Shown here one piece after another: positions 4,383-26,906 of a stretch of DNA of 32,000 nucleotides; position 1 is the stretch's first letter, and each line of letters opens with the position of its first letter. The position numbers were made by a program, and so were the translations under genes. The notes under the pieces were generated by a model. The model did no database searches, had not been told where the DNA came from, and was given only the letters and a program-made list of their open reading frames with translations. This DNA is from Promethearchaeota archaeon (lineage in GTDB: Archaea; Asgardarchaeota; Hermodarchaeia; Hermodarchaeales; Hermodarchaeaceae), in NCBI GenBank assembly GCA_048938295.1, contig JBHLMI010000007.1:55978-87977 (forward strand), read 5' to 3'.

Positions 4383-5063
4383 TCATGCTGATCTAAATCC
4401 GGATGACTGTAGGTTCATCATCAAGATTATTGGTTCACGGATTTTCTCTTTGATTAACTTAAATTCTCTGTAACCCTTCGACTCCGCCCGAGTTATTTGC
4501 AGAATATAGGTGCTCCAATATGATGTAACTGATTCAGCAACTGGTAAAAAATGGTTTCTGTCTTCAATGTCCCCACGAACCTGGTTTATCATGATTACTG
4601 AAAACCCTGATGAGCGAGCAGCACTAACGATCAGACCTAATTGTTGATTCAATTTGCGATTCAATATCACATTATTCGTTCCGTATTCTTTACGGTAGTG
4701 AGATACAATTGTGTCAAACACTAACAGCTTGGTATCAGAAGTGAGTATTGAATCAAGTTGAGAAACAAAGTTTGCTTGTTCTATGAAATTAGTGGGTGAC
4801 ACTATGGAAATTAACGGGGAAATCGAATCGAAGTCAGTAGGAGTCATCTGTTTTAATCGAAGAATCGGAAACTTTCCCTCTGAATTGACATAGATTACTC
4901 TGTTTCCCTTTCGAGCAACATTTATCGAAAATTGTAGGGCTAACGTAGTTTTTCCTACGCCACCAGGTCCAAAAACTTGAAGAACCTCGCCTTCATTAAG
5001 CCCGCCTCCTAAGACTTCATCCAAAGATATTGCACCCGATTGGAGTGGCTTAATTGTAGACAT
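4383..5063 (-). CDS. radB: DNA repair and recombination protein RadB (RecA family)
   Basis: LDEVLGGGL, Walker A GPGGVGKT, YVNSE, LLVFD, INQVR; short 226 aa with no RadA N-terminal domain. Confidence 0.85.
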   Translation of the reverse strand: MSTIKPLQSGAISLDEVLGGGLNEGEVLQVFGPGGVGKTTLALQFSINVARKGNRVIYVNSEGKFPILRLKQMTPTDFDSISPLISIVSPTNFIEQANFVSQLDSILTSDTKLLVFDTIVSHYRKEYGTNNVILNRKLNQQLGLIVSAARSSGFSVIMINQVRGDIEDRNHFLPVAESVTSYWSTYILQITRAESKGYREFKLIKEKIREPIILMMNLQSSGFRSA

Positions 5064-5080
5064 GCCCGAGACACCAGAGA

Positions 5081-5116
5081 TTCATTAAATTCAATGAATT
5101 TGTTATTTTTAATGAA
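5081..5116. repeat. 9-bp iteron array 1 (TTCATTAAA TTCAATGAA TTTGTTATT TTTAATGAA)
   Basis: Period-9 copies of palindromic TTCAWTGAA in the xpd-radB gap. Confidence 0.7.
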
Positions 5117-5128
5117 GTAGAAGAGGAT

Positions 5129-7126
5129 TCATGTAACTGAATAGAAGTTCTTTAGGTGAGTATAAAGTACTCCTTCAGCGTCATTTGAGCCCCTTAAGTG
5201 TTCGTTTATCCATTTGGGGAGCAAACGTTTGCAAGCTGGCGTAGCATAACGGTCATCTAAAAATACAATCGCACCCCTGTCCTCAAGTGTGCGAACTGAA
5301 CGCCCTGCTGCCTGAGACGCGGTTCGCAGAGCAGGCAGTTGGTACCCATATAACCGACCCTTCTGAGGAAATTGGCTTTCAAGGTACGCGATTCGAGTCG
5401 CCTCCTTTGGAGTAGGCTTTGCGTAAGGAACCCCAACAATCACTACCGTCTCCATCTCATTCCCCGGATAATCCTCCCCCTCACTGTTCCTCCCGCCAAG
5501 GACCCCAATAAGCATGGCACCGTCATGAGCTTTGCGTTTAAACTTCTGAATTAAGGAATCGTTTTCGCTCGAAGACAACTTCGGTTTCTCAATGAATAGT
5601 TCCCGATTAGATACCTCATCTAAACCAGCATCAAGAAGAGATTGTAGTACCGAGTATGATGGAACAAAAACACCAACGTTATGGGGTGTAGCCTGGCAAA
5701 CCTCTAGAACTCGGCGATTAATTTTTTTGTACATTTGAGGCGTTCTGTATTTCATGGCCGTTGTGACTCCAAGACTGATTATTGGGAAAATTTGGTTCTG
5801 AGTAAAAGGAAAAGGTAAATTGAGAACCACCGTTTTTTTCGGTAAACCAACAAGATCAATATGGGCACTTGTTGGCTCCAAGGTCCCCGATAAATGAACC
5901 GAAGAATAGCAAGATTTCAGAATCGAAGTAGTTGCTATACGCGGGTCTAATGCAACTACTTCAAGATATGTAGGCGTATGATTTGGTTTATTTTGGATAA
6001 TGAAGAAGGCTGCATCTTTTCTTTTAAGAAAGAAACACCAGTTTATGAAGAACTGAGCCAGGGAATGGATGTAGCTTATCGGTGGTTTTCCTTCGTTTAG
6101 TAATTGGTTAAGCACCTTACTACCCAATTGTAACAAAGTTTCAACAAAGTTATTGAAATCATTAATTTTAAGAACTTGACATAATCGTGAAGTTAACTCA
6201 ACTGGGTCAAATCGAACCTCCCGTTCTGAATAGCCATCTATCAATTGTTGAATGAAATGTTCCAAGGTGAGTACGAAATGTTTGATTGATGAAAGGCCAT
6301 AGCGATTCGCTTCTTTCACTGACTGCTTTATTGATGTCAACGAAAGGCGTGCAGATGCTAAATCGACGGCAATCCGAGGTAGATTGTGGGCTTCATCTAA
6401 AATGAGGATTGTGTGAGACAATGGATGACCAAAAGCCTCAAAGAACAGGGTATTTATATGCGGATCAAAGATCTGAAAATAAGTGGTAGCCACAACAGTT
6501 ACCAAAGGCAGCAGGCATTTTGAAAGCTCATAAGGGCACACCTTATCAGACTCACACTTTTTCCGAAACTCCAAACCTGTGAGAGGTGTTTGATAATAGT
6601 TGCTAAAATAATCCCGCTCTCTTTTCTTCCTTTTTACGAGATTTTGATAATACTCACAGCGTCCCGCACGTTTCAATTGACTGCAAATGAACATGGCAAG
6701 TTGAGCACTTTCAGCATATTTGCGAACTATTGGATTCAGGCATGTGGATGCGCGTCCTCGTAATACCACTCCATTGAAGCCAGTCGATTCGGAGATTAGT
6801 CGTAATTCTTGCATCACCCGATCTAATTGTTTGTGAGTTCTGGCAACATAGACTATCCCAAAACTCTTCCTCTTAAGGAGTGACAAGACCCCCGATAAGG
6901 CAGCGATAGTTTTCCCAAAACCATTAGCAGCCTCAACGCACATATGTTTCCCAGCCCCGACATCATCATGAATTGCTTGAATTAATGATAGTTGACCAGG
7001 CCTTGGAGAAGTATAGGGAAAATAGCGTTGGGTATGGTTTGAACACATTTTGCGTGTCCTCATCATTTGATAAAGCTTAGAGAATAAAAACTTCGTTTTG
7101 GTTTCATGCTTCAGAATAGAATTCAT
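5129..7126 (-). CDS. xpd: XPD/Rad3-type Fe-S 5'-3' DNA helicase
   Basis: Q-motif PRPGQ, EAANGFGKT, Fe-S cysteines, DEAHNL, SGTL, GVLGGRNSEGED, QAAGRSVR. Confidence 0.92.
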   Translation of the reverse strand: MNSILKHETKTKFLFSKLYQMMRTRKMCSNHTQRYFPYTSPRPGQLSLIQAIHDDVGAGKHMCVEAANGFGKTIAALSGVLSLLKRKSFGIVYVARTHKQLDRVMQELRLISESTGFNGVVLRGRASTCLNPIVRKYAESAQLAMFICSQLKRAGRCEYYQNLVKRKKRERDYFSNYYQTPLTGLEFRKKCESDKVCPYELSKCLLPLVTVVATTYFQIFDPHINTLFFEAFGHPLSHTILILDEAHNLPRIAVDLASARLSLTSIKQSVKEANRYGLSSIKHFVLTLEHFIQQLIDGYSEREVRFDPVELTSRLCQVLKINDFNNFVETLLQLGSKVLNQLLNEGKPPISYIHSLAQFFINWCFFLKRKDAAFFIIQNKPNHTPTYLEVVALDPRIATTSILKSCYSSVHLSGTLEPTSAHIDLVGLPKKTVVLNLPFPFTQNQIFPIISLGVTTAMKYRTPQMYKKINRRVLEVCQATPHNVGVFVPSYSVLQSLLDAGLDEVSNRELFIEKPKLSSSENDSLIQKFKRKAHDGAMLIGVLGGRNSEGEDYPGNEMETVVIVGVPYAKPTPKEATRIAYLESQFPQKGRLYGYQLPALRTASQAAGRSVRTLEDRGAIVFLDDRYATPACKRLLPKWINEHLRGSNDAEGVLYTHLKNFYSVT

Positions 7127-7148
7127 TGATTACAATGAGATTATTGAG
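7122..7148. repeat. 9-bp iteron array 2 (TTCATTGAT TACAATGAG ATTATTGAG)
   Basis: Period-9 copies overlapping the xpd start in the divergent promoter region. Confidence 0.65.
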
Positions 7149-7191
7149 TATATTGATATCCAAGAGCGTGGAAAGTGTTTAAAGTACCAAC

Positions 7192-7761
7192 GTGTTTTTA
7201 AGTATCGATTCGAGACGTATACAATATTGTATCCATGGGGGTAAGGATTTGTCTCAAAGAAACGAAGTCAAGGAAACGCGTTCTTGGGCGCGTAGAATGC
7301 TACAGGATCCAATAACAGTATTGTTGGCTAAAAAAAGCCACCTGTCCCAAGTGCAGCTAGAAACTCTAGTGCTTGATTATCTTCTCGACGGTTTCAGTGG
7401 AAAGCGCATTGACTATCAAACCAAAGCAGCTCTGAGAGATAAAAAAGATAAAATGCAAAAACAGGCAGGTGTTAGTAGAGGAGCTTTCAACCGTTCGCTC
7501 GCTCAGGCACGTCAGAATGTTACGAAATCTGTTTTTACCGTGGTACTGTTAGGCTATCTTGGGCTATTTGAATCACCTTCTCTGATGCGTTATCAAGACT
7601 TGGCAGAGGACATTCGAAGTTATGCGCGCGAATACGACATTGTCGCTACAAAAGACGAAAAGCCAACCCCCACCCACCTAGGCACCCTCAAACAGAGCCA
7701 AAATCGCATTCTAGAGCTCATTGAGGCCCTTGCCCAACCATTGGCACTTAAACCCGACTGA
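7192..7761 (+). CDS. Conserved archaeal hypothetical protein with a putative HTH (true start possibly TTG at 7249)
   Basis: DPITVLLAKKSHLSQVQLETL and GVSRGAFNRSLAQARQNV resemble an uncharacterised TACK/Asgard family with an HTH_10-like recognition helix (from memory, not searched). Confidence 0.75.
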   Translation: MFLSIDSRRIQYCIHGGKDLSQRNEVKETRSWARRMLQDPITVLLAKKSHLSQVQLETLVLDYLLDGFSGKRIDYQTKAALRDKKDKMQKQAGVSRGAFNRSLAQARQNVTKSVFTVVLLGYLGLFESPSLMRYQDLAEDIRSYAREYDIVATKDEKPTPTHLGTLKQSQNRILELIEALAQPLALKPD

Positions 7762-7763
7762 GT

Positions 7764-7787
7764 AATTTCAATGAACTCATTGAAATT
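7764..7787. repeat. 9-bp iteron array 3 (TTCAATGAA CTCATTGAA), a perfect 11-bp inverted repeat
   Basis: AATTTCAATGA-AC-TCATTGAAATT in a convergent intergenic gap. Confidence 0.8.
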
Positions 7788-7810
7788 CCATAATTACGGT
7801 ATTAAGGCAG

Positions 7811-8383
7811 TCAGGACACAAAAGTCAAAATTTCTTTTCCTTTTGTCGTGAGTGTGAGAGTCCCTTGGGATTCGCTGAGTAACTTTTTAGATGTAAGGTA
7901 GTCAATGGCTTGGTCGATAAACCCAGTATCAAACCCGACATCAAGTAGAGAGGAATCTTGGATGGTTCCTCCCATATTTTGAACCTGCAATAGTATGGAA
8001 TAATACCCGAGGGCGCCAATTAGGTTAGTAGCAAGCCCAGCCTCTTCTTCCAATTTTTTTGGCCAAAGATGGATTGGCAGCCACCCAATGAAGCTATAAA
8101 CCACTACTTCTTCAAAGGCATGGAGTAAGTTGAGAACGGCATCCTCAGTTCCAGGTTGAATGGCGATCACACTTTTCCCAAGCTTCACGTATGGTATCTG
8201 GTCTAGCACCCCGGGATAGTGGTACGTTCGAGTTACAATTTCTCCATCTTTCAGTTCCTGTTTGATTTGCTGAGTATACCCATACAACTCTCGAAAGAAC
8301 CGTGTTTTTCGAGCTTGGCTCGATCCCTTAGGCTGCTTGAAATCAAAAGAGATCACATATACTCGTCGTACATCATGCGACAT
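7811..8383 (-). CDS. Cas2/VapD-like ferredoxin-fold domain fused to a C-terminal winged helix
   Basis: VYVISFDF resembles the Cas2/VapD beta1 ending in Asp; KLGKSVI resembles the Cas2 RVQxSVF strand; C-terminal IDQAIDYLTSKKLL...TLTLTTKGKEIL is wHTH-like. Confidence 0.6.
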   Translation of the reverse strand: MSHDVRRVYVISFDFKQPKGSSQARKTRFFRELYGYTQQIKQELKDGEIVTRTYHYPGVLDQIPYVKLGKSVIAIQPGTEDAVLNLLHAFEEVVVYSFIGWLPIHLWPKKLEEEAGLATNLIGALGYYSILLQVQNMGGTIQDSSLLDVGFDTGFIDQAIDYLTSKKLLSESQGTLTLTTKGKEILTFVS

Positions 8384-8480
8384 CCGTTAGACCCACCCGA
8401 AATGCCAAATGAAGATTCTATATCCGAGCGGACCTTATAATTTATATCGACTGCTATCGACTGATAGTGATTTGAAGAAT

Positions 8481-8516
8481 AATATTAATTTCATTGATTT
8501 TAATGAAATTAATAAT
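8481..8516. repeat. 9-bp iteron array 4 (AATATTAAT TTCATTGAT TTTAATGAA ATTAATAAT), with a perfect 13-bp inverted repeat
   Basis: TATTAATTTCATT-GATTTT-AATGAAATTAATA (8483-8514), just downstream of the RHH gene. Confidence 0.8.
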
Positions 8517-8529
8517 TTCACGAGTAAGA

Positions 8530-8898
8530 TTATCCTTCTCGTTGTAATTCATTGTATACTTCAGGAAAATCAGACTTCAGCTTTTCCTCAAGAGCTTCAG
8601 CAATGAACCTAGATTTCCCACCAAAGCCTGCATATTGTCCCTGTCCTGATTTCGTAGCCGCTAACGATACGAAATCTAAAGCCGCTTTAATCCAAGCGGG
8701 TACACTGGCACTGATAGTTCGACGCCCCTCATACTCGCTTTCGATACGCAATCTCTTCAACCCCGAATCTCCAACCCGTGCCGACAGTTCTTCGAGTTCA
8801 ATTTCCCGAGTTTCTGCTGACTGGGTTTTTTTCGGTGGTTTGGGTTTTGATTCTTTTTCCTTTTTCATCCGTTCTCTAATGAGATCAGTAGCTGACAT
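8530..8898 (-). CDS. Ribbon-helix-helix DNA-binding protein with a Lys/Pro-rich flexible N-tail (ParG/SegB-like architecture)
   Basis: RRTISASVP (beta strand), AWIKAALDFVS (helix 1), GKSRFIAEALEEKL (helix 2); N-terminal MKKEKESKPKPPKK tail. Confidence 0.7.
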   Translation of the reverse strand: MSATDLIRERMKKEKESKPKPPKKTQSAETREIELEELSARVGDSGLKRLRIESEYEGRRTISASVPAWIKAALDFVSLAATKSGQGQYAGFGGKSRFIAEALEEKLKSDFPEVYNELQREG

Positions 8899-8909
8899 TT
8901 ACACTCACC

Positions 8910-10229
8910 TCAAACAAACGTGGATCCTTTAGTCCAAAGCTCGGTGGCTTGTATCTTGCCGGCTTCGGGACTGTATATGAGCCCCTGCTTTTCGAATAAG
9001 TCGAAATCTTCTAGCACACTTTCCCATGAACGTTCCTGATTCTGGAGCCAAGACTCAATATCATCTAGCGAACGAGAAACGGAAAGAAAGCCTAAGAGCT
9101 CAGTTTGAAAGTTAGTAAACTCTGCTCGCGCACGGGTTACTTCCTTTTGGACAAATTGTTGAACATATTCTGAATTAATTTGGTAAACTGATATGACTTG
9201 ATCCAATGAGTACCCATCATTGATGAGAACCTCAGCACCTCGGATTGCATCCTGAAGACACCGGAGAAGTAGTTCAAGCATAATCCCAGGATTTCCTCCG
9301 GAATAGTTGAATATTGCTTCCAGCGCCTCTCCTGTGAAGGGAACAAGTAACCCCTGGATCATGGGTGAATCGAAATTAATACGTTCATCGAGTTCCTTAC
9401 TAATTTTATCCAATGAACCTTTGAGATAGGCCAGTCTCCAGAGCAGTACTTTCAAAGCAGTGCTCTTTTTCATTCGACGCATATCGTAAATCTCAACGAA
9501 CCTTCGCCGAATAGCTGACTTGCTTCCATGGCCTAAGGTTTCCCCTACTGAGGAAAGGAGTTCGAGCGTCTTTACTGCACTTTCCCCAACACGTGTAATG
9601 ATGGCTAAAGCTAGCACGAGAAATCGGCGACCATCTCTGGTCTTATCATTGACCATCCGAAGAAGGGTATCAACTATACGTACACGATTGTCTGGTCGTT
9701 GACGTTCTAGCTGGCGAAATTCGTCGATTAACAAGACATACGAGGTTCCATTCTCTTCTGCATCTGTTCGCAGGGCTAATAAGAGACGCGAGAGTCGTTT
9801 GGCAATGGAGCCGCTTCTTACTACACGAACCCCCACTTTATCAATTAAAAAGTCCCGAACGGTTTGTACTCCTATATCAGCATGGAGAAGATCGTCAATC
9901 AGCGCGTCGGCTGAACTGACTCCTTCAAGACGAACGGCACGTATATTCGGTAAGCGATTCAATGACTCTTGAATCATCTCCAAGAAGGTAGTCTTTCCAG
10001 CACCGAGGGGACCAGACACAACGATACTCGCGGTCTGATTTCGAAGATAGTTGACCGCCCTTTTGATTGCCAAAGCCTCCTCCTCAGGGACGACATATAA
10101 ATCCGGTGAATCTATCCCAAAGAGCTCAATCCGTTCGGTTTTGAAACCCCATTTTGCTAGCATTTGCTGATCAAATTTGTGCGTTTGCTCGACTAACCGA
10201 TCAAGTTCACTCAGACTAAACACACCCAA
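8910..10229 (-). CDS. ExeA/TniB/MuB-like AAA+ ATPase with C-terminal winged helix
   Basis: Walker A GPLGAGKTT, Walker B LLIDE, RRRF (putative arginine finger), PFTGEALEAIFNYSGGNPG ExeA-type lid, wHTH-like last ~70 aa; TTG start; 11-bp gap to the RHH gene. Confidence 0.8.
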   Translation of the reverse strand: MGVFSLSELDRLVEQTHKFDQQMLAKWGFKTERIELFGIDSPDLYVVPEEEALAIKRAVNYLRNQTASIVVSGPLGAGKTTFLEMIQESLNRLPNIRAVRLEGVSSADALIDDLLHADIGVQTVRDFLIDKVGVRVVRSGSIAKRLSRLLLALRTDAEENGTSYVLLIDEFRQLERQRPDNRVRIVDTLLRMVNDKTRDGRRFLVLALAIITRVGESAVKTLELLSSVGETLGHGSKSAIRRRFVEIYDMRRMKKSTALKVLLWRLAYLKGSLDKISKELDERINFDSPMIQGLLVPFTGEALEAIFNYSGGNPGIMLELLLRCLQDAIRGAEVLINDGYSLDQVISVYQINSEYVQQFVQKEVTRARAEFTNFQTELLGFLSVSRSLDDIESWLQNQERSWESVLEDFDLFEKQGLIYSPEAGKIQATELWTKGSTFV

Positions 10230-10300
10230 GAATGTTGATAGAGAAGGGAGTCCAGTGATAAAAAATTATTGATTGTATTTAAGATAAAAAACTAATTGGT

Positions 10301-10327
10301 CGTAATGAATTCAATGAAATTATTGAT
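10301..10327. repeat. 9-bp iteron array 5 (CGTAATGAA TTCAATGAA ATTATTGAT)
   Basis: Period-9 copies about 70 bp upstream of the AAA+ gene start, next to a TATA-like element on the minus strand (CTTAAATA, ~10275-10282). Confidence 0.75.
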
Positions 10328-10340
10328 TTGCTAGATAATT

Positions 10341-10937
10341 TCATGGTTTTGTATAGGCAATGACGTCGATTTTAGTAATTATTCCAATTGGCCTGTCTTC
10401 ATCTAATACTAAGACAGCTTCAACCCCGGCAGCGATTTTAGAAAAGGCTGTTTCTACTTTATCTCTAATGTCAATTGTTGGAAAAGGAGGTTCCATGATT
10501 TCTTGAACAGAAAGACCAAATACTTTCTGTGATTCCATGACCATTAGCTGTTTGATAATTGTTCCCTCACTGATGGCTCCAATTGCTTTGTTTCGTTTCA
10601 GCACGGGTAACTGTGAGATACCATGACGTCGCATGAGAATCACAGCTCGTCGAACCCTATCTTCAGGGCCAACCCAGATCAAGGGATTCAGCTTTGATTG
10701 GCCTTTCCACCTCAACAAATCACTAAGAGAGGAATAGGTGTGTTTATGCTCTTCGATTACGGCGAGTATACGTTTGAGCGTACCGACACTGGGATTTACC
10801 TGACCCTTTTCAATGCGTGCCACCAAAGACTGACTTATCCCGACGTGTTTCGCTAGCTCAGATTGGGTTAATCCGACTTGTTTTCGTAATTCTTGGAGTT
10901 CTTTGGGTGAAGGAACGCGAAATTCAGTCATTAGCAA
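10341..10937 (-). CDS. XRE-family HTH + CBS-pair transcriptional regulator
   Basis: ELRKQVGLTQSELAKHVGISQSLVARIEKGQVNPS followed by CBS motifs (GISQLPV, GIITKID). Confidence 0.9.
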   Translation of the reverse strand: MLMTEFRVPSPKELQELRKQVGLTQSELAKHVGISQSLVARIEKGQVNPSVGTLKRILAVIEEHKHTYSSLSDLLRWKGQSKLNPLIWVGPEDRVRRAVILMRRHGISQLPVLKRNKAIGAISEGTIIKQLMVMESQKVFGLSVQEIMEPPFPTIDIRDKVETAFSKIAAGVEAVLVLDEDRPIGIITKIDVIAYTKP

Positions 10938-11008
10938 GCACGCACCGATATCTTATACTATTGATAATAACTCCAAAAGAATTAATACTCTGCCTGAATC
11001 GGTGAAGG

Positions 11009-13348
11009 ATGGAGATGACGACAATGCCCAACGCTCAACAAGCTGAAATTCGAGTCGTTGGTGTCGTTCAAGGAATTGGTTTCCGTCCATTTATTTATGC
11101 GCAAGCTACCCAGCGTGGGCTTGTTGGGTTTGTTTTGAATACTGGAAATTCGGCAGTACTAATTGTTGTGGAAGGAGAAAAAAAGAAAATCATTGAATTT
11201 ATTGAATCCATTGAAAGAGATAAGCCCTACCTGGCTGTTATTGACAGCATTCAAACCATCTGGCACACTACTGCAGGCAAATTTAAGGACTTCCAGATTC
11301 GCATCTCCAAAAATGAGCAGAAAGCGGGTGGTTCAGTTATCCCCGCCGATATCGCTGTGTGTACTGATTGCATAGAAGATATGAATAACCCCCAATCACG
11401 CCATTATCAATACCCGATGACCTGTTGTGCCATCTGCGGCCCTCGTTACACCACCATCACGGATACCCCCTATGATCGTGAACGTACTACAATGAACGAG
11501 TTCCCTTTATGCGAAGCCTGTGACAAAGAATACAACAACCCCATCGACCGACGGTATAATGCCCAAACTATTTGTTGCCCCATTTGTGGTCCACATTTTA
11601 CCATATTAGAAGCCGATGGAACAGCTCTCAAAGTTAGGGATCCCTTTATCGAATCTGTGAAATTACTGAATGAAGGTGCAATCGTCGCGGTTAAAGGATT
11701 GGGTGGAATTCATCTGGCAGTCAGGTCTACACTAGATGACCAAGTCAAACGTCTCCGCGAACTTCGGAACAAACCGAACAAACCCTTCGCCATTATGTCC
11801 AAAGACCTTGAGGCAGTACAGAAGTATGCGGCAATCGACTCAACCGCGGAACGATTGCTCTTGTCATGGAGACGTCCCATTGTGGTAATACCGCAACGAA
11901 CCCCGTTTCCACTCTCAAAATTTCTTTCTCCAGGATTGGACACCGTTGGCGTCATGCTTCCATATTCAGGAATCTATCTTCGACTTTTCGAAGGGTTACA
12001 AGATCTTGCCTTGGTAATGACCAGCGCTAATCCTACAGGCTTGCCCACGATGATCCATGCTTCTACATTTCAAGAACGTTTTATGGATATGGCAGATTAT
12101 TTCTTAACACATAATCGAACAATCTTCCAGCGATGCGATGACTCCGTGCTAATTCCTATATTCGATCAAGAGTTGATAATTCGGCGATCACGAGGGTACA
12201 CTCCCGAACCCATCGACACCGCGGATGGAGGTCCTACAATTCTTTCACTCGGTGCTTTAGAGAAAAACACCGGGTCTATTTACCATAAGAGACGGGTTTT
12301 TCTTACTCAGCACATTGGAGATATTGATACAGTCGAATCCCTCCAATTTCTCCAGGAAAGCCTCTCTCATCTAAAGAACTTGCTACGGGTTAATACCTTC
12401 GATGCGGTTGCCTGTGATCTGCACCCAGATTTCTTAACCACTCAATACGGAGCAGAGTTATCGAAAGCACAGCAAGTTCCACTTGTCCAGGTGCAGCACC
12501 ATCATGCTCACCTAGCTGCTATTCTCGCCGACCACAAATTACCTCTTGATGAAGAGATCGTGGCTATTTGCTGTGACGGTGCAGGATACGGTCCAGACAA
12601 AACCGTGTGGGGTGGGGAAATTCTTACAGGAACCGCGTACAACTACACAAGATCGGCGTATCTCGAGCCACAACCCATGCCCGGTGGAGATCTGGCCGCA
12701 AAGTTCCCTTTCCGAATGCTACTTGGTATTCTCTCGAAGAAATATTCAGAAACAGAATTACGTAGCCTTTTCGAGATAAGGGCAAAGGATTCATTACCAC
12801 AGGGAACCGCGGAATTTGAAATAATCCTGACTCAAATATCTCAAAAGATTAACACGCCGATAACTTCGAGTACGGGCCGCGTTTTAGATTCACTGGCTGC
12901 GCTATTGGGTGTATCCACCCAGCGAACCTATGAAGGGGAACCCGCCATTCGACTTGAAGCCTTCGCGAATATGGGAACCTACCGACCAGACATTCAGTTA
13001 GATATTCCAGTGAACCAGGAAGGAAAAGTACAGGTGTTAAAGACAAGTAATCTTGTGGATCAGGTCTTACAACTCCAGGGTGAATTTAGTGGTTCTGATC
13101 TCGCTCTAGCTGCACACCAATCTTTAGGAAAAACTCTTGCACATGCGGCTATTGGCGCGTCAAAATCTAATGGAACAACAAAAATCGGATTTACCGGCGG
13201 AGTCGCCTACAACAAAATTCTCACACGTACAATTCGAAGCATTATCGAAGCAGCAGGGTATGAGTTCCTGATGCACCGAAAGGTCCCTGCAGGCGACGCA
13301 GGTATCGCGGTGGGGCAATCCCTGGTCGCACGTGCCAATCTTCGATAG
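11009..13348 (+). CDS. hypF: Hydrogenase maturation carbamoyltransferase HypF
   Basis: GVVQGIGFRPF acylphosphatase domain, two CxxC zinc fingers (CAICGPRY, CPICGP), KGLGG, QHIGD, DLHP, QHHHAH, DGAGYG, TSSTGR, PAGDAGI. Confidence 0.95.
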   Translation: MEMTTMPNAQQAEIRVVGVVQGIGFRPFIYAQATQRGLVGFVLNTGNSAVLIVVEGEKKKIIEFIESIERDKPYLAVIDSIQTIWHTTAGKFKDFQIRISKNEQKAGGSVIPADIAVCTDCIEDMNNPQSRHYQYPMTCCAICGPRYTTITDTPYDRERTTMNEFPLCEACDKEYNNPIDRRYNAQTICCPICGPHFTILEADGTALKVRDPFIESVKLLNEGAIVAVKGLGGIHLAVRSTLDDQVKRLRELRNKPNKPFAIMSKDLEAVQKYAAIDSTAERLLLSWRRPIVVIPQRTPFPLSKFLSPGLDTVGVMLPYSGIYLRLFEGLQDLALVMTSANPTGLPTMIHASTFQERFMDMADYFLTHNRTIFQRCDDSVLIPIFDQELIIRRSRGYTPEPIDTADGGPTILSLGALEKNTGSIYHKRRVFLTQHIGDIDTVESLQFLQESLSHLKNLLRVNTFDAVACDLHPDFLTTQYGAELSKAQQVPLVQVQHHHAHLAAILADHKLPLDEEIVAICCDGAGYGPDKTVWGGEILTGTAYNYTRSAYLEPQPMPGGDLAAKFPFRMLLGILSKKYSETELRSLFEIRAKDSLPQGTAEFEIILTQISQKINTPITSSTGRVLDSLAALLGVSTQRTYEGEPAIRLEAFANMGTYRPDIQLDIPVNQEGKVQVLKTSNLVDQVLQLQGEFSGSDLALAAHQSLGKTLAHAAIGASKSNGTTKIGFTGGVAYNKILTRTIRSIIEAAGYEFLMHRKVPAGDAGIAVGQSLVARANLR

Positions 13349-13382
13349 TAATCTGAACAACGAAGGCGGCTTTGTATCATTC

Positions 13383-13418
13383 AAGAATGATTTCATTTAT
13401 TTCATTGAATTCAATAGG
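13383..13418. repeat. 9-bp iteron array 6 (AAGAATGAT TTCATTTAT TTCATTGAA TTCAATAGG), abutting an ORB
   Basis: Period-9 copies whose last base is shared with the ORB at 13418. Confidence 0.75.
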
Positions 13419-13431
13419 TTCCAGTGGAAAT
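13418..13431 (+). promoter_or_regulatory. ORB core (GTTCCAGTGGAAAT) without a G-string
   Basis: Match to the archaeal origin recognition box core GTTCCAGTGGAAA. Confidence 0.75.
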
Positions 13432-13486
13432 CATCCACAACTAATATAAATACCCGATATTTATCTAGACATGGAGTTGTAGTATT

Positions 13487-13783
13487 ATGGCCGCTACCCG
13501 AACGTCACAACAGACCACTCAAAACGCCCAGAAGACAAAAACACGGCAACGACCAGCAACCATAGTTCCCACAGAAACAGCAGAGGTTAAGAGCCACATA
13601 ACTGCACTTCTACGATCAAAAGGTGCCCTCACCAGAGGAGAAATAACTACCAAAACGGGAATACCCCGAACCACAGTTTATGACACCCTTATGAACTTGC
13701 TAATCTGTGGTGTCGTTGAAAAATATGTTGAGCGAAATGGTCGTCGTGGCCGTCCTTCTGTCTATTATCAACTAGTCGCTTAA
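13487..13783 (+). CDS. Small TrmB-like winged-helix protein between ORBs
   Basis: LTRGEITTKTGIPRTTVYDTLMNL...GVV...RRGRPSVYY; T/Q/K-rich N-tail. Confidence 0.8.
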   Translation: MAATRTSQQTTQNAQKTKTRQRPATIVPTETAEVKSHITALLRSKGALTRGEITTKTGIPRTTVYDTLMNLLICGVVEKYVERNGRRGRPSVYYQLVA

Positions 13784-13796
13784 TTTTTTAGATAAT

Positions 13797-13817
13797 CCCC
13801 CTTATTTCCACTGGAAC
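13797..13817 (-). promoter_or_regulatory. Full ORB with G-string (GTTCCAGTGGAAATAAGGGGG)
   Basis: Plus strand reads CCCCCTTATTTCCACTGGAAC. Confidence 0.9.
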
Positions 13818-14000
13818 CTCTTTTTTGTCGGTTTTATTGTTAATAGTTAATCTTTTCATGAAATGCGCAAAAGTGTCTTGTGAAATATTTACAGAGGATA
13901 TGGAGAGACTGTAAACTATTTATATAAGATAGAAGGAAAACAAACGGGGAGTATTCTTCGAATAATTAAAAACAAATTACAAACTCTAATAATTCTTCGA

Positions 14001-14023
14001 GTTCCAGTGGAAACAAAGGGGAG
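14001..14023 (+). promoter_or_regulatory. Full ORB with G-string (GTTCCAGTGGAAACAAAGGGGAG)
   Basis: Near-perfect match to the archaeal ORB consensus. Confidence 0.92.
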
Positions 14024-14143
14024 TATCGAGAAACACCAAATAAGAGCTTATTTCTTTGAACTTTGGTGATCTATTTGTTAAGAGTTTATAACTATAGTGC
14101 ATAACTCATTCATATGCAAAGGAAAATCAAATAGTTTTTGGTC

Positions 14144-14614
14144 TCAGGTTTTATCTGCAAGTACTGCTGCGATCTCATCAGTGAGTTCTTCAATATTCAC
14201 ACGATATTCGCGTTGAGCGGCTGATCCTCTTCGGCTTAAGCTACCTTCTTTGTGCATACGAGAAAGGTAGGTTGAAGCGGTTGCTAGGGGGATTGGTGGG
14301 TGGAAGGCGTGTTCGTAGAGCTCCTGGACGTCCTTTGATGTGAACCAACCGTGGCGGCAGTTACGCAAGACGATGTATCGGACTTTTTGCCTGACGGTCC
14401 AGGATTCATAGTCTGGTATTTTCAATGCATCGGGTGGTGTGTCCGTTGTGGCCTCTTGTTTGTCTGGGGACTGCAAGGCTGTTGCTATGGTTTCAGTGAT
14501 GGACAATGGTAGGCCGTCATTGAAAGTAATAGTGATGTCGCAAGGTTTTCCATCGATTGTGAGACCTTCAATGGTGATCTTCTGTTTCTGTTTCTTCATT
14601 GATCCATACCCCAT
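14144..14614 (-). CDS. Winged-helix protein within the origin region (likely start ATG 14599)
   Basis: GWFTSKDVQELYE...PIPLATASTYLSRMHKEGSLSRRG...YRV wHTH pattern; short beta-rich N-terminal region plus linker. Confidence 0.8.
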   Translation of the reverse strand: MGYGSMKKQKQKITIEGLTIDGKPCDITITFNDGLPLSITETIATALQSPDKQEATTDTPPDALKIPDYESWTVRQKVRYIVLRNCRHGWFTSKDVQELYEHAFHPPIPLATASTYLSRMHKEGSLSRRGSAAQREYRVNIEELTDEIAAVLADKT

Positions 14615-14842
14615 TAGGGTGTATGTGGCTCTCCATGTCCCTTCTAGGTTTCATGTTCACAGCATTAAAAGTGTGACGGTGTGAACTGGCTCGAAACTAA
14701 AATGTAGCATATTGTCAGCAGTTCTGTATTAGTGATACATTAGGGTCTGGTGTGTTCTTATGTATTTAATCGGATAAATTGTGAAATAAGGATTATCCGC
14801 CCTCTATTTTTGATTTAGAGGTTTTTCTCCAAGTTTTTAATA

Positions 14843-15036
14843 TGTTCACCTGTTGTTAACATGTTAACAATTAAATTCTGGTAAATATGCCCTTAGATTA
14901 GTTTTCCAATGGAAATGAAGGGGGGAGGCGATGTTAACAAGAATAATACTATGGATAAGTATTTTTTCGCAAAAAGAAGGCTAAATTATTGTTATTCAAT
15001 AAAATATGTTAACGTTTTTGGCGCCAATTGTGAACA
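14843..15036. repeat. Cluster of palindromic TGTTAACA octamers
   Basis: Perfect at 14854, 14862 (tandem) and 14932; near-perfect at 15007 (TGTTAACG), 15029 (TGTGAACA) and 14843 (TGTTCACC). Confidence 0.65.
14904..14925 (+). promoter_or_regulatory. ORB with G-string (TTCCAATGGAAATGAAGGGGGG)
   Basis: One core mismatch to the ORB consensus, followed by a G-string, 240 bp upstream of cdc6. Confidence 0.85.
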
Positions 15037-15086
15037 AATTAACTATTAATAGATGAACTATGTGTTTGAGAAGTATCTCTTTCTGC

Positions 15087-15136
15087 GAAACGCTAATATT
15101 GTAGGACAGTAACCTTCCAAAAGAAACGCTAGTATT
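15087..15136 (+). promoter_or_regulatory. cdc6 leader: direct repeat GAAACGCTARTATT x2 and mini-ORB TTCCAAAAGAAAC
   Basis: Copies at 15087-15100 and 15123-15136; mini-ORB at 15115-15127. Confidence 0.55.
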
Positions 15137-15165
15137 TCCTTTGGGATTTTGGAGGATCACTTGAC

Positions 15166-16401
15166 ATGGACGACCCCAGACCACTTGACCGCATCTTCGA
15201 CCGATTGAGCTCTGGTCCGACCCTCATCGAGGATCGAAAAGTGTTACGGCATGAATACGTTCCTGACGTACTTCCCCACCGGGAGGAGCAAATTACGCAG
15301 ATTGGAAGTATACTAGCCACGGGATTAAAGGGAGGTCGGCCTTCAAACGTTTTTGTGTTTGGGAAACCGGGAACTGGAAAAACTGCTGTGACCCAATATG
15401 TGCTTCGGGAATTGGCGACGAAATTTGGCGAACTGCAATTGCCTTTCAAAGCAGTATATCTGAATTGTCAGCATGTGGATACCGATTATCGGGTGTTGGC
15501 TCGGATTTGTGCTGAGTTGGGGCAGAAAGTGCCATTTACTGGATTGCCAACAGATGAAGTTCATTCACGTCTCGTCGAATTATTAGAAAGTCAGGATCGG
15601 TTGACCATAATCGTATTGGATGAGATTGACCGATTGGTAATGAAAAGTGGAGGTGATACTCTCTACAAACTGACGCGTATAAACTATGAGCTATCTAAAG
15701 CGCGGGTTAGTCTGATTGGGATTTCAAATGACCTGCAATTCCCGAGTTATCTTGATTCTCGGGTGCTGAGTAGTCTAAGTGAAGAAAAGGTGATTTTTCA
15801 TCCGTATACTGCTCCACAATTGCAAGATATTCTGCGTCGGCGAAGCTCAACCGGTCTAAAAGAAGGAATATTAGAAGAACCTGGGGTCATTAATCTTTGT
15901 GCGGCTTTGGCTGCAAGAGAGGAGGGAGATGCCCGCCGGGCACTTGAACTCCTGCGTGTGGCGGTGGAAATTGCGGAAAGAGAAGGCAGTGCTGAAGTAA
16001 AAGTCGAACACGTTGAGAAAGCGCGTTCAAGTATTGAGCGTGATACGACATTGGAAGTGTTACGTACGCTGCCTGTTCAACAGAAATTAGTGCTTTATGC
16101 AGTCTACCTGCTTGAAAAGCATAAACATCCGCATCCTGTGACAGGGGAGGTTCAAGACGTGTATGGTGATCTTTGTAATCAACTTGGTATGGATCCGTTG
16201 ACTCAGAGGAGGGTAGGCGACCTTATCAATGACCTTGATGGGATCGGGCTTGTCAATGCGAAGGTTATTAGCAAAGGGAGGTATGGACGGACAAAGAATA
16301 TCCGCCTCAGTGTACCAAAGAATATAGTCTCCGATGTGTTGGAACGTGACAGTCGTATCAAAACCCTCGCAAATTATGTACCTCCTACCTTGAGAAAATA
16401 G
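15166..16401 (+). CDS. cdc6: Orc1/Cdc6 replication initiator (origin-associated)
   Basis: YVPDVLPHREEQI, GKPGTGKT, IVLDEID, GDARRAL, C-terminal wH (LTQRRVGDLINDLD...SKGRYGRT); next to the ORB cluster. Confidence 0.95.
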   Translation: MDDPRPLDRIFDRLSSGPTLIEDRKVLRHEYVPDVLPHREEQITQIGSILATGLKGGRPSNVFVFGKPGTGKTAVTQYVLRELATKFGELQLPFKAVYLNCQHVDTDYRVLARICAELGQKVPFTGLPTDEVHSRLVELLESQDRLTIIVLDEIDRLVMKSGGDTLYKLTRINYELSKARVSLIGISNDLQFPSYLDSRVLSSLSEEKVIFHPYTAPQLQDILRRRSSTGLKEGILEEPGVINLCAALAAREEGDARRALELLRVAVEIAEREGSAEVKVEHVEKARSSIERDTTLEVLRTLPVQQKLVLYAVYLLEKHKHPHPVTGEVQDVYGDLCNQLGMDPLTQRRVGDLINDLDGIGLVNAKVISKGRYGRTKNIRLSVPKNIVSDVLERDSRIKTLANYVPPTLRK

Positions 16402-25685: not shown

Positions 25686-26906
25686 ATGGAGATTATCCGA
25701 CATGAATTGCAACGCCCATCTGTATTCATCGATGAGGCGAAGCTGTCCATTGATTATGTTCCTCCCAACCTCCCCCACCGTGAGGAACATCTCCGTAAAT
25801 TAACGCAGTTGTTTCGTGGCGTCGTCGAGGCACCCGGTCAAGTGTCACAAAAGGTAATCATTATCGGTAATACGGGATCAGGGAAGACCTCAGTCACTAA
25901 ACTGTTTGGAAAACTGCTCTGCGAAGTGGCGAAGAGCCACGGCTTTAATCTGGTATACGTGCATGTGAATGCGCGTCGTGAACGAACCGAATACATGATT
26001 CTGAACAAGATCCTCTCTGCCTTTCAGAGAGGAATACCGCTTCGTGGGTTATCAGCACAAGAATTGCTTTCAATCATTTTGGAGTATATTGAATCGAATA
26101 ATCTCTACCTGCTAGTCACGTTAGATGAGCTTGGGGTGTTCCTCAAGCGTCGTGGAGAAGAGATACTCTATCTCTTGTCACGCACGGTGGATGATCAACT
26201 CAATGCCCAACAGCGCATCTCCCTGATTGGCATAAGCCGTGATCCATTGTTCGGCTTCATCCTTGACCCGAGCACCTGGAGTACTCTACAGAAGAATGTC
26301 CTTCATTTTAATCGCTATGATTCACGTCAGCTTCGAGATATCTTGGAGTTTCGGGTAAAAGCGGCAGTGTTGGACGGCGCAGTACCGGCGAGTACAATCG
26401 ATCTAATCGCCGATATCGCAGGCGCCTCTGGAGACGCACGTTACGCCTTGGAGCTGCTCTACAACGCAGGCAAAGTAGCCGACGAGAAAGGAGTGCTTCG
26501 GATACTGCCTGAATATGTACGGAGCGCGAAGGCGTTCATTACGCCGGAAATACGACGCGAAGTCCTTGTCGATTTATCGCTGCACCGTCTTTTCCTTCTG
26601 CTTGCGGTTTGCAGATTGTTAAAGCCTTCAGAAGATGCCTACATTACCACTGGCGACCTTGAAGCTCGTTACGAGCTTATCTGTGAAGAGTATACACGGA
26701 GCCCCCGCGCCCATACCCAGGTATGGACATATATCCAAGACCTTGTGGGGCTTGGGATTCTCACTTCAAAGATCTCCGGTACTGGACAACGCGGAAAAAC
26801 TACGCTAGTTAGTCTCCCTGACATTCCTGCGGCTGTCCTAGAACATGAGCTGGAATTACTCCTTGAGAAACGGAGAGTTGGTGCTAAAGGTGGTCGAAGA
26901 AACTAA
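25686..26906 (+). CDS. cdc6: Second Orc1/Cdc6 paralog
   Basis: YVPPNLPHREE, GNTGSGKT, VTLDE, SGDARYAL, HTQVWTYIQDL...GQRGKTT winged helix. Confidence 0.92.
   Translation: MEIIRHELQRPSVFIDEAKLSIDYVPPNLPHREEHLRKLTQLFRGVVEAPGQVSQKVIIIGNTGSGKTSVTKLFGKLLCEVAKSHGFNLVYVHVNARRERTEYMILNKILSAFQRGIPLRGLSAQELLSIILEYIESNNLYLLVTLDELGVFLKRRGEEILYLLSRTVDDQLNAQQRISLIGISRDPLFGFILDPSTWSTLQKNVLHFNRYDSRQLRDILEFRVKAAVLDGAVPASTIDLIADIAGASGDARYALELLYNAGKVADEKGVLRILPEYVRSAKAFITPEIRREVLVDLSLHRLFLLLAVCRLLKPSEDAYITTGDLEARYELICEEYTRSPRAHTQVWTYIQDLVGLGILTSKISGTGQRGKTTLVSLPDIPAAVLEHELELLLEKRRVGAKGGRRN

Follow-up and report, generated by a model that had tools for sequence, protein, structure and literature searches.

The window analysed here, a 32,000-nucleotide stretch of the genome of an uncultured Asgard archaeon (Hermodarchaeia), carries a replication origin and, beside it, a group of genes interspersed with short tandem repeats. 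The origin oriC (13418-14915) contains ORB cores at 13418-13430 (+), 13805-13817 (-) and 14001-14013 (+) and a degenerate one at 14903-14915; its inverted ORB pair bears G-strings, and an identical ORB core adjoins cdc6 in the loci L048, L050 and L064. The orc1/cdc6 initiator gene lies at 15166-16401 (+; Pfam Cdc6_C, Cdc6_lid and AAA). An operon on the minus strand encodes, as its first gene, an ATPase of 439 aa (AAA439, P0004; 8910-10229) with an AAA+ base, a lid and a winged helix, and a protein of 122 aa (RHH122, P0001; 8530-8898) with a conserved N-terminal peptide, a basic linker and a predicted C-terminal ribbon-helix-helix (RHH) domain. The gap between the two genes measures 13-16 bp in 12 genomes. 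The conserved neighbour upstream of this operon is a regulator with HTH_3 and CBS-pair domains according to Pfam (P0007; 10341-10937, -), which is present in Hermodarchaeia, L049, L050 and the genome G022. Two further genes encode u189 (P0003; 7192-7761, +), a conserved protein with a probable helix-turn-helix for which Pfam and NCBIfam searches gave no match, and wH156 (P0006; 14144-14614, -), a probable winged-helix protein located among the ORBs. Both have orthologues in L048, L050 and G022 and, judged by these, are members of a conserved origin-side gene set. Also present at the locus are several small genes for DNA-binding proteins and one Cas2-like/winged-helix gene.

Between positions 5081 and 13418, seven tandem arrays of a 9-bp palindrome were found. 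Six of them had been reported in a preliminary description as TTCAWTGAA repeats in exact 9-bp register, and direct reading of the sequence confirmed all six; the observation is stronger than first reported. Array 1 (5081-5116; four units) is placed 18-53 bp before the ATG of radB, in the gap that separates this gene from the xpd stop, and eight genus genomes share its position and four-unit layout. Array 2 (7122-7148; three units, with weaker ones out to 7113-7166) occupies the divergent xpd/u189 gap and is conserved across the genus, even in genomes without xpd. Array 3 (7767-7784; two units) begins 5 bp past the u189 stop in a convergent gap (7761/7811) and was found in 11 of 12 relatives. 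Array 4 follows the stop of the RHH gene by 14 bp, about 100-130 bp upstream of wH190; three good units (8490-8516) stood up, while the first unit originally proposed at 8481 is weak. Array 5 (10301-10327; three units, with weaker ones out to 10292-10336) follows the HTH-CBS stop by 13 bp and precedes the AAA+/RHH operon by 72-98 bp. Array 6 (13383-13418; four units) lies past the hypF stop, and its last unit touches the outermost ORB (core 13418-13430), a junction that is conserved genus-wide. Nearly every intergenic gap had been described as occupied, and indeed six of the seven gaps longer than 20 bp in the span hold an array. Confinement to gaps, however, applies to these six only: the newly found array 7 (11189-11215; three units) lies within hypF, at codons 61-69 (IIEFIESIE). 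It is the top-scoring array of the genome (24 of 27 matches) and is present in 13 genus genomes, in which ATT encodes Ile at unit positions 4-6 in 39 of 39 cases, compared to 55% gene-wide; this synonymous-site constraint indicates that the array is retained. In hypF outside the genus, no array of this kind was found. A weak match inside xpd (6140-6184) shows no conservation among relatives and probably arose by chance.

The exact 9-mer TTCAWTGAA occurs six times in the window (0.99 expected; six or more copies in none of 100 shuffles), but only four of these copies fall within arrays, which are degenerate and follow the consensus TTYAWTRAA. A matrix built from 313 units of 13 genomes is mirror-symmetric, with A and T interchanging freely at the centre base. 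Across the 13 genus loci there are 95 cases in which one TYAWTRA core follows the next at exactly 9 bp and almost none at 8 or 10 bp, and on all contigs of this genome other than that of the window only two cases of the 9-bp spacing occur. The mirror symmetry, the free A/T centre and the exact period are what would be predicted for one two-fold symmetric dimer per unit. A genome-wide scan (2,519,385 bp) at a threshold of at least 21 of 27 matches to three TTCAWTGAA units yielded eight arrays, seven within 5081-13418 and one on another contig. The 8.3-kb span amounts to 0.33% of the genome, yet it holds seven of the eight arrays, and it ends at the outermost ORB of the cdc6-linked origin. Clustering was thus seen only beside the origin, apart from the single distal site, and the scan revealed neither scatter through AT-rich intergenic DNA nor a known regulon. 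The distal array, conserved in five genus genomes, lies in a divergent promoter gap with a longin-like/Ras GTPase operon on one side and a GNAT gene on the other; this location leaves room for a regulatory reading.

Across 12 genomes of the same genus (all genomes compared are metagenome bins), the arrays have stayed in syntenic positions, with the surrounding intergenic DNA diverging. The RHH family was detected in 14 of 14 genus genomes and in none of four genomes of the sister genus, in which the AAA+ ATPase and the arrays were likewise not found. In two or three further Asgard lineages, with an ATPase about 55% identical, the same unit and period recur beside cdc6, and the system always lies 2-5 kb or less from cdc6. 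An array upstream of the AAA+ gene, equivalent to array 5, is present in L048, L049 and L050, and one straight after the RHH stop also in L050 and L051; the order AAA+ gene, RHH gene, array is shared by three lineages. The convergent gap of L048 (7320-7364) is array-filled as well. In the distant lineages the arrays surround the AAA+/RHH operon, but among other genes (Alba, POR, aminotransferase), and therefore track the operon and the origin and not particular target genes. The gene pair noted in the preliminary description is real, and it travels with the arrays and cdc6 in several Asgard lineages. In G022 the ATPase was not found and the N-terminal motif of the RHH protein is missing; only one or two weak arrays are left, yet the RHH core, HTH-CBS, u189, wH156 and cdc6 are retained. 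By its gene content G022 would be a lineage that lost the ATPase and whose arrays decayed, a 'natural knockout' that represents a single lineage with AT-rich DNA and a genome 93% complete with 8% contamination.

The model of AAA439 (pLDDT 85) supports an Orc1/Cdc6-like three-domain fold, with structural matches to Aeropyrum ORC2 (Z 17.2), Sulfolobus Cdc6/Orc1 (Z 16.6), TnsC (Z 15.4) and MuB (Z 14.1), and ORC/Cdc6 proteins also rank top in Foldseek. The Walker A and B residues are invariant. AAA439 is not of the ParA, ParM or TubZ type. For RHH122, sequence comparison with RHH families and with solved RHH proteins gave no match, and the family is tiny (three clusters among 1.84 billion proteins). 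While the monomer model is poor (pLDDT 54), the modelled homodimer scored 0.54 against 0.01 for the best control, a mark reached by 20 of 30 proteins solved as same-chain pairs and by one of 23 solved as single chains. Three runs agreed in at least 85% of contacts, with a partner pLDDT of at least 69 and strand pairing 63:63. RHH122 is therefore predicted to form an RHH-type dimer. Its strand R-x-T-I-S-[AG]-S and GFGGKS helix cap are invariant across lineages, so that invariant ribbon residues match an invariant DNA unit.

A palindromic unit with a period equal to its length fits cooperative binding by RHH dimers, and RHH122 is the most likely candidate for the array-binding protein. Counted against it are the HTH-CBS regulator, itself a rival candidate binder, u189, wH156, Trm98 and the winged helix of the ATPase, all of which are conserved local DNA-binding domains with invariant reading heads. 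We infer that the arrays might act as iterons, i.e. candidate protein sites of the palindrome TTYAWTRAA repeated head-to-tail two to five times. Each unit would be bound by one RHH122 dimer, whose two-stranded ribbon would occupy the major groove at the central W, and dimers 9 bp apart would touch, resulting in a short cooperative protein filament per array. Spread over 8.3 kb up to the Orc1/Cdc6 site that lies farthest out in oriC, seven such arrays would build a nucleoprotein domain flanking the origin, in which the conserved N-terminal peptide of RHH122 may recruit or regulate AAA439 from the same operon. Structurally, AAA439 would belong to a clade (ORC, MuB, TnsC) whose members assemble on DNA with ATP. 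Such a complex would most likely mark, compact or position the origin region, and occupied promoters and gene ends would probably also tune local transcription. That dimer-bound iterons and the ATPase form an origin-flanking complex, centromere-like or origin-organising, has in our estimate an even chance of being correct. The locus has the appearance of a protein-DNA assembly that is linked to the origin and has not been described before, and it may be a chromosome 'handle'. Points counted against this reading are the RHH assignment, which comes from a modelled dimer, the operator-like placement of the distal array and of arrays 1 and 2, and the motor, since we know of no segregation system with an AAA+ motor. 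The parS-like centromere suggested earlier is partly supported, by the origin clustering, the gene pair and the RHH-compatible unit; its limits are the type of ATPase, four other local candidate binders and the distal promoter-gap array.

The proposed logic would be that of ParG-ParF, omega-delta and SegB-SegA with a different motor class. In the plasmid systems ParG/parH (TP228), omega (pSM19035) and ParR/parC (R1, pSK41), a small RHH dimer with a flexible N-tail binds short iterons in exact tandem register, cooperatively and with one dimer per unit, as might be the case here. There, the same sites serve as centromere and operator and the gene order is NTPase, binder, repeats, but the motors are ParA-type or actin-like instead of AAA+, the iterons form one or two blocks beside the operon instead of seven arrays over 8 kb of chromosome, and the periods are 7-8 or 10-11 bp instead of 9 bp. 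MetJ boxes (8 bp) and omega heptads (7 bp) parallel the 9-bp period observed here. The met boxes are likewise palindromic units, two to five in a row with a period that matches the length of the unit, bound by one RHH dimer each with neighbouring dimers in contact; their 8-bp unit (AGACGTCT), however, occurs at promoters of a dispersed metabolic regulon, with neither a partner ATPase nor an origin link. Bacterial ParABS resembles the locus in having several short palindromic sites confined near the origin beside the system genes, but ParB is a spreading HTH CTPase clamp, parS a single 16-bp site and ParA a Walker ATPase, and none of the three was found at this locus. Orc1/Cdc6, MuB and TnsC have the fold of AAA439 and assemble on DNA with ATP, MuB being switched by MuA and TnsC by TnsB/TniQ as site-specific partners; no transposase was found near AAA439. 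SegAB of the Sulfolobales likewise combines an RHH protein and a partner ATPase with sites near the operon and the origin. SegB, a chromosomal RHH protein of archaea, stimulates its partner ATPase through an unstructured N-terminus and builds assemblies of multiple dimers that resemble chromatin (PMC8682754); the strongest of its sites cluster at its own operon and oriC1, with a few distal ones (bioRxiv 10.1101/2025.02.07.637068). The differences lie in the ATPase (ParA-type Walker versus Orc1/Cdc6-fold AAA+), the site (a single, mostly intragenic 13-bp palindrome TCTAGA-S-TCTAGA versus tandem, almost all intergenic 9-bp units), the lineage (Thermoproteota versus Asgard) and the binder, as RHH122 has no detectable sequence similarity to solved proteins including SegB.

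A plain local operator regulon, in which an RHH (auto)repressor or the ligand-sensing HTH_3-CBS protein controls the genes beside the origin together with one distal operon and plays no part in chromosome mechanics, is a somewhat unlikely account. It would explain why arrays 1 and 2 overlap likely promoters, why array 5 precedes the AAA+/RHH operon, why the sole distal array occupies a divergent gap and why the array surviving in G022 lies upstream of the RHH gene, like an autoregulatory site; moreover, MetJ operators are built exactly as tandem palindromic boxes, and the HTH of the HTH-CBS protein is invariant across lineages. Arrays 4, 5 and 6, however, lie about 25-70 bp upstream of conserved TATA-like elements and not over them by our reading, and arrays 3 and 7 occupy sites where a promoter is unexpected, with arrays retained in convergent gaps of two lineages and within hypF. 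Arrays also persist although their flanking genes differ completely among lineages, they decayed where the ATPase was not found though all candidate transcription factors remain, and it would be unusual for a repressor to have seven of its eight sites within 8 kb that border on an ORB.

It is decidedly less probable that the arrays are loading, titration or sequestration sites for AAA439, reached via its winged helix or the RHH protein, through which firing of the adjacent origin is modulated as by a second initiator-like factor or a datA/SeqA-like brake. In favour of this, the best structural matches of AAA439, which cover all three domains, are archaeal Orc/Cdc6 and eukaryotic Orc1/Orc4/Cdc6, the winged helix at its C-terminus hardly varies, cdc6 is never far away, and in G022 too an array abuts an ORB. 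On the other hand, the arrays lack the ORB core and differ from known Orc1/Cdc6 sites, which are unlike tandem 9-bp palindromes, they are spread across 8 kb to a single side of the origin, AAA439 is not matched by the Pfam models of the Cdc6 lid and winged helix, and its fold is equally near to PF01637 'archaeal ATPases' and to TnsC/MuB.

Readings in which the arrays are not protein sites, be they repeats that arose by chance in AT-rich DNA, hairpins of cruciform or terminator type, an RNA element or remains of an integrated mobile element or a defence island, are very improbable and largely refuted, for all that the small DNA-binding and Cas2-like genes of the locus count in their favour: 11 palindromic, composition-matched control units gave 0-3 arrays each genome-wide against eight, Rfam gave no match, PADLOC returned generic domain matches only, base composition resembles that of the remaining window, radB, hypF and cdc6 synteny is stable genus-wide with the core retained across classes, and, although 10-13-bp hairpins can be folded from two arrays, three of five fold no better than shuffles.

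The tandem arrays of the palindromic 9-bp unit TTCAWTGAA constitute a conserved origin-flanking iteron system that is tied to an operon encoding an Orc-fold AAA+ ATPase (AAA439, 439 aa) and a ribbon-helix-helix (RHH) protein (RHH122, 122 aa), and that occurs in a few Asgard lineages. The preliminary description had listed six arrays. Direct reading of the sequence confirmed all of them in exact 9-bp register, at 5081-5116 (array 1), 7122-7148 (array 2), 7767-7784 (array 3), 8490-8516 (array 4), 10301-10327 (array 5) and 13383-13418 (array 6), but the set was incomplete, as a seventh array inside hypF (11189-11215, array 7), the top-scoring one in the genome, had been missed. The arrays are degenerate, and four of the six exact TTCAWTGAA copies of the window fall in them. 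The window occupies positions 55978-87977 of contig C47 in the genome, a metagenome bin of 2.52 Mb in 66 contigs with ~45% G+C; its close homologues carry source names of Hermodarchaeia/Hermodarchaeota, an Asgard group. The whole genome was scanned for two, three or four tandem units. With three units and at least 21 of 27 matches, eight arrays were obtained, seven within 5081-13418 and one on contig C32; with four units (at least 27 of 36 matches) there were seven, five of them within the array span. Eleven control palindromes of identical composition gave 0-3 arrays each. This clustering at the origin bears out the confinement noted earlier; on the strength of the scan and the controls, a global regulon and a common AT-rich repeat were both rejected.

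The two-unit pattern (at most two mismatches) yielded 5-13 matches per genome of the genus, save one in a fragmented genome, and a single match in each of four genomes of the sister genus, with 0-1 for the reversed-pattern control. A phylum-wide scan allowing at most one mismatch was uninformative beyond the genus, AT-rich Asgard genomes yielding 1-4 scattered matches. A matrix built from 313 units of 13 genomes is mirror-symmetric: T at position 1 (61%) is matched by A at position 9 (62%), T at position 2 (83%) by A at position 8 (90%), C/T at position 3 by G/A at position 7, and A at position 4 (93%) by T at position 6 (93%), while A and T are about equally frequent at the central position 5. 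The unit is thus a true palindrome with a period equal to its own length, and an orientation bias, in which the TGA half seemed better kept, was dropped because of this symmetry. The TYAWTRA core recurs at exactly 9 bp in 95 cases among the 13 loci of the genus and in 34 among three distant loci, against two cases in the rest of the source genome (all contigs except C47); spacings of 8 or 10 bp are almost absent.

In listed order, the region comprises carS, radB (4383-5063, minus strand), xpd (5129-7126, minus), u189 with a probable helix-turn-helix (HTH; 7192-7761, plus), wH190 (7811-8383, minus), RHH122 (8530-8898, minus), AAA439 (8910-10229, minus), an HTH_3+CBS regulator (HTH-CBS; 10341-10937, minus), hypF (11009-13348, plus), a small TrmB/Lrs14-like gene (13487-13783, plus), wH156 (14144-14614, minus), orc1/cdc6 (15166-16401, plus) and the gene for PolD DP1. 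Short iterons in exact register stand in tandem upstream of the operon and directly 3' of the RHH stop. Classical cores of Orc1/Cdc6 origin sites (ORBs; GTTCCAGTGGAAA) lie at 13418-13430, 13805-13817 and 14001-14013, with a degenerate one at 14903-14915; two carry G-strings. As the outermost core is situated at 13418, the end of array 6, the cdc6-linked origin begins exactly where the last array ends. The ORB/mini-ORB core TCCAGTGGAAA, with or without G-string, is absent from the arrays, and the ORB cores are separate elements. The only sizeable gap without an array, between the divergent HTH-CBS and hypF genes (10960-10995), holds a different motif, TAACTCCAAAAGAATTAATACTCTGC. Throughout the genus this motif is almost invariant; it probably represents a further operator or promoter element.

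The hypF neighbourhood was compared among 12 further species of the genus. Gene order is identical, except that xpd is missing in two genomes, and every locus of sufficient length carries six or seven arrays at the same syntenic places. In alignments of the gaps, the arrays are conserved blocks amid diverged DNA, and the point where array 6 meets the outermost ORB is likewise conserved. The array in the convergent gap between u189 and wH190, to which the preliminary description had drawn attention, is real and was kept in 11 of the 12 relatives. In the two species in which xpd is absent between radB and u189 (loci L031 of genome G014 and L041 of G011), arrays 1 and 2 share one gap; G014 retains a remnant of the xpd start (…GGATAAAAACCTCAT). 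A weak array inside xpd (6140-6184) was rejected, as relatives lack it. Array 7 codes for IIEFIESIE in HypF. At unit positions 4-6 fall three Ile codons, which in 13 genomes are ATT without exception (39 of 39), compared with 55% ATT gene-wide; the Glu codons are GAA with one exception. Outside the genus, only the hydrophobic I..F..L pattern of HypF is retained and there is no array. At array 7, selection acts on the nucleotide sequence.

Beyond the genus, homologues of AAA439 in a collection of 5.8 billion proteins were confined to Hermodarchaeia (76-100% identity) and a Ranarchaeia-labelled group (52-56%), and the RHH122 family comprised no more than three clusters (50% identity) in a set of 1.84 billion representatives. 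On three Ranarchaeia-type contigs (L048, L049 and L050) the AAA+ gene is followed by a 122-130-aa RHH122 homologue and the operon is usually preceded by HTH_3-CBS and u189 homologues; it lies 2-3 kb from cdc6, with an ORB core as in the source genome. This operon, too, lies amid six or seven arrays with an identical unit and period, located between quite different genes (Alba, pyruvate-ferredoxin oxidoreductase subunits, an aminotransferase); one of them, in L048, takes up a convergent gap of 44 bp. Since the flanking genes differ, the arrays track the operon and the origin and not a set of target genes. The gene for the chromatin protein Alba lies inside the array domain in all three loci (L048 6460-6765, L049 7128-7403, L050 7458-7787), with arrays on one or both sides. 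A 689-bp contig belonging to a third RHH cluster carries the ATPase C-terminus and the RHH gene, whose stop is followed after 38 nt by an array of three units.

A survey of 400 genomes from the phylum detected the RHH family in 14 of 14 members of the genus, in none of four members of the sister genus (80-83% complete) and in one other genome, G022. A profile search with AAA439 gave no match in the sister genus or in G022. The latter retains cdc6, the ORBs, wH156, u189, the TrmB-like gene, HTH-CBS and the RHH core, while the ATPase gene is missing between HTH-CBS and RHH and the RHH protein is without the N-terminal motif. Just one array still has at least 21 matches, located 5' of the RHH gene; a weak array abuts an ORB. 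This pattern, from one lineage with AT-rich DNA, hints that ATPase, RHH tail and dispersed arrays function as a triad, and not that the arrays serve simply as operators for one of the transcription factors still present.

AAA439 consists of an AAA+ base, a lid and a C-terminal winged helix, with invariant Walker A (GPLGAGKTT) and Walker B (LLIDEF) motifs and an invariant winged helix. Its model (pLDDT 85) matched Aeropyrum ORC2 (Z 17.2, residues 21-431), Pyrococcus PAB2304 (Z 16.9), Sulfolobus Cdc6/Orc1 (Z 16.6), TnsC (Z 15.4) and MuB (Z 14.1), the best matches spanning all three domains, and the top Foldseek matches were archaeal and eukaryotic ORC/Cdc6 proteins. In sequence searches, only generic AAA models and PF01637 were recovered, Pfam Cdc6_lid and Cdc6_C giving no match, and human Orc4 was a weak profile match (E 0.007). 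Both Cdc6 models match the neighbouring cdc6 product but miss AAA439, which is therefore described here as having the Orc1/Cdc6 fold, not as a member of the family.

RHH122 opens with a conserved N-terminal peptide (MSxxDLIRERMKKEK), which is followed by a basic linker that varies and by a C-terminal domain. Two elements of this domain, the strand R-x-T-I-S-[AG]-S-x-P and a helix cap, GFGGKS, do not vary in any lineage. The monomer model was poor (pLDDT 54), and a structure search from it was dropped for that reason; it places a strand at 59-63 and helices at 68-83 and 96-110. Two copies of residues 50-122 were modelled as a dimer with a score of 0.54, compared with 0.01 for the best control; 20 of 30 proteins solved as one-chain pairs attained this mark, as did one of 23 solved as single chains. 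Runs agreed in at least 85% of contacts, with partner pLDDT of at least 69. The predicted contacts (63:63, 61:64-66 and 102:102) describe an antiparallel two-stranded ribbon and paired second helices, which supports an RHH dimer; in the model, RHH122 has the strand-helix-helix topology and intertwined dimer of the superfamily. None of 12 members matched a Pfam family, RHH122 had no NCBIfam match, and no RHH chain was found among PDB matches at E up to 10; the only lead came from a language-model neighbour cluster, 45% of whose members carry CB_ParB_C.

A palindromic unit repeated at its own length in exact register and with a free centre is what a symmetric dimer per unit with side-by-side contacts predicts. 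In established RHH systems one dimer occupies each unit, as with MetJ (8-bp boxes), omega (7-bp heptads), and ParG and ParR (iterons). Three-unit arrays are harder to reconcile with an HTH dimer that needs two units (18 bp), since its sites would overlap at an offset of 9 bp and clash. This geometry favours RHH122, which is reasonably likely to be the reader of the arrays, and the ATPase AAA439 would be engaged via the RHH122 tail.

As in RHH-type partition systems (type Ib ParFGH/omega-delta and type II ParMRC), tandem iterons in register lie beside the operon, but the NTPase of those systems is a ParA-type Walker protein or actin-like ParM, whereas the partner here belongs to the Orc/Cdc6-MuB-TnsC clade of AAA+ proteins. 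The array locus has no ParA-type gene, and the ParA/MinD-like genes of the genome are located elsewhere. MuB and TnsC, DNA-bound AAA+ assemblies that are switched by a site-specific partner, are the nearest mechanistic analogy for AAA439. To our knowledge, a motor of this type resembles nothing in segregation, and no description of this array/AAA+/RHH system was found in the literature. Positionally, the arrays resemble bacterial parS clusters. The strongest sites of Sulfolobus SegB cluster around segAB and oriC1, and SegB forms chromatin-like assemblies (PMC8682754; bioRxiv 10.1101/2025.02.07.637068). The concentration of sites at operon and origin is shared, with seven of eight arrays here beside the ORBs and one conserved distal array; in contrast, SegA is ParA-type, the SegB site is TCTAGA-S-TCTAGA and not TTCAWTGAA, and RHH122 has no sequence match to solved chains. 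The earlier interpretation as a centromere or nucleoid organiser is partly supported. Within the RHH-iteron theme, both the partner ATPase and the layout of this system are without precedent, and its function is still a proposal. In the most novel but rather doubtful reading, AAA439, its RHH adaptor and the dispersed arrays would represent a chromosome-handling machine of a new class, used by Asgard archaea. Such a machine would be an origin-tethered, centromere-like system in which an initiator-clade AAA+ protein acts as motor or scaffold in place of a ParA, actin or tubulin relative, and the segregation or organisation complex would be physically coupled to the outermost Orc1/Cdc6 site of the origin.

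In a more modest reading, the arrays would be operators of a local repressor. The only distal array (C32:25110-25154; L043 7111-7155), which is conserved in five genomes of the genus (the source genome and L044-L047), lies in a divergent gap between an operon of a 272-aa longin/roadblock-like gene and a Ras-family GTPase on one side and the gene of an Rv0428c-like GNAT acetyltransferase on the other, and looks like a regulon member. Moreover, the HTH of HTH-CBS, the probable HTH of u189 and the winged helix of the ATPase are as invariant as the RHH ribbon. Arrays 4, 5 and 6 lie ~25-70 bp upstream of conserved TATA-like elements and arrays 1 and 2 probably overlap promoters, so some transcriptional effect is likely; the public sequencing runs listed as carrying this stretch included no RNA data set. 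Yet this is not the whole story, as arrays 3 and 7 are sited where no promoter is expected and a transcriptional effect alone is insufficient to account for them. MetJ-type operators sit at the promoters of dispersed regulons; here some arrays overlap likely promoters and the distal one lies in a promoter gap, and others are found in convergent gaps or coding sequence. The data also allow a role in replication control, in that an array abuts an ORB and the ATPase fold is Orc-like. A Ras/Arf-like GTPase gene beside cdc6 in the distant loci and another beside the distal array were provisionally taken as coincidence, since Asgard genomes are rich in such genes. Hairpins, cruciforms or terminators were rejected, two of five arrays folding better than shuffles and three no better. 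A known RNA family was rejected as well, no Rfam family attaining its gathering score within 4500-15500, and a defence island was dismissed, as PADLOC returned only generic P-loop, HTH or winged-helix matches.

The organisation and segregation of archaeal chromosomes are largely unexplained, and we know of no description of either in Asgard archaea, the closest known relatives of eukaryotes. The locus offers a concrete, testable handle, because its 9-bp unit is defined, its two proteins are small and soluble, and its place relative to the replication origin is fixed. If ATPase and RHH protein do act on the arrays, an ORC-like AAA+ protein would have been recruited to a non-initiator, DNA-organising task beside the origin, which recalls the non-replicative roles of ORC in eukaryotic chromatin, and a fourth motor class for DNA partition would be added. 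Were the arrays merely sites of a local repressor, they would be the first defined cis-regulatory code of an Asgard lineage, and array 7 a rare case of a binding-site array kept within coding sequence by synonymous-site selection.

Several further features of the locus were observed. The wH190 product begins with a Cas2/VapD-like beta-alpha-beta element (VYVISFDF) and has a winged helix at its C-terminus; the gene is restricted to the genus, the distant loci being without it, and neither a CRISPR array nor cas1 lies near it. Upstream of it (8444-8467), a direct repeat TATCGACTG(C/A) occurs twice in the source genome only, being absent from the closest relative. Two additional Orc1/Cdc6 paralogues (window 25686-26906 and G000:C39:30260-31429), neither of which has period-9 arrays nearby, share 31% and 25% identity, respectively, with the cdc6 at 15166, so that the genome encodes three Cdc6-type proteins in addition to the Orc-fold AAA439. 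In one species of the genus (L033, G012), an additional cdc6-like gene (6616-7716, 31% identity) is inserted upstream of carS, ~2.5 kb from array 1. Just 5' of cdc6 (15087-15136), two copies of the direct repeat GAAACGCTA[AG]TATT lie 36 bp apart, kept across the genus within ...TTCCAAAAGAAACGCTAGTATTTCCTTTGGGA; this may be a cdc6 autoregulatory site. Finally, a conserved block adjoining the start of wH156 (14640-14700; CTCTCCATGTCCC ... GTGTTCACA ... ATAAAAGTGTGACGGTGTGAA) contains an imperfect inverted repeat and is a candidate operator for wH156 or origin element.
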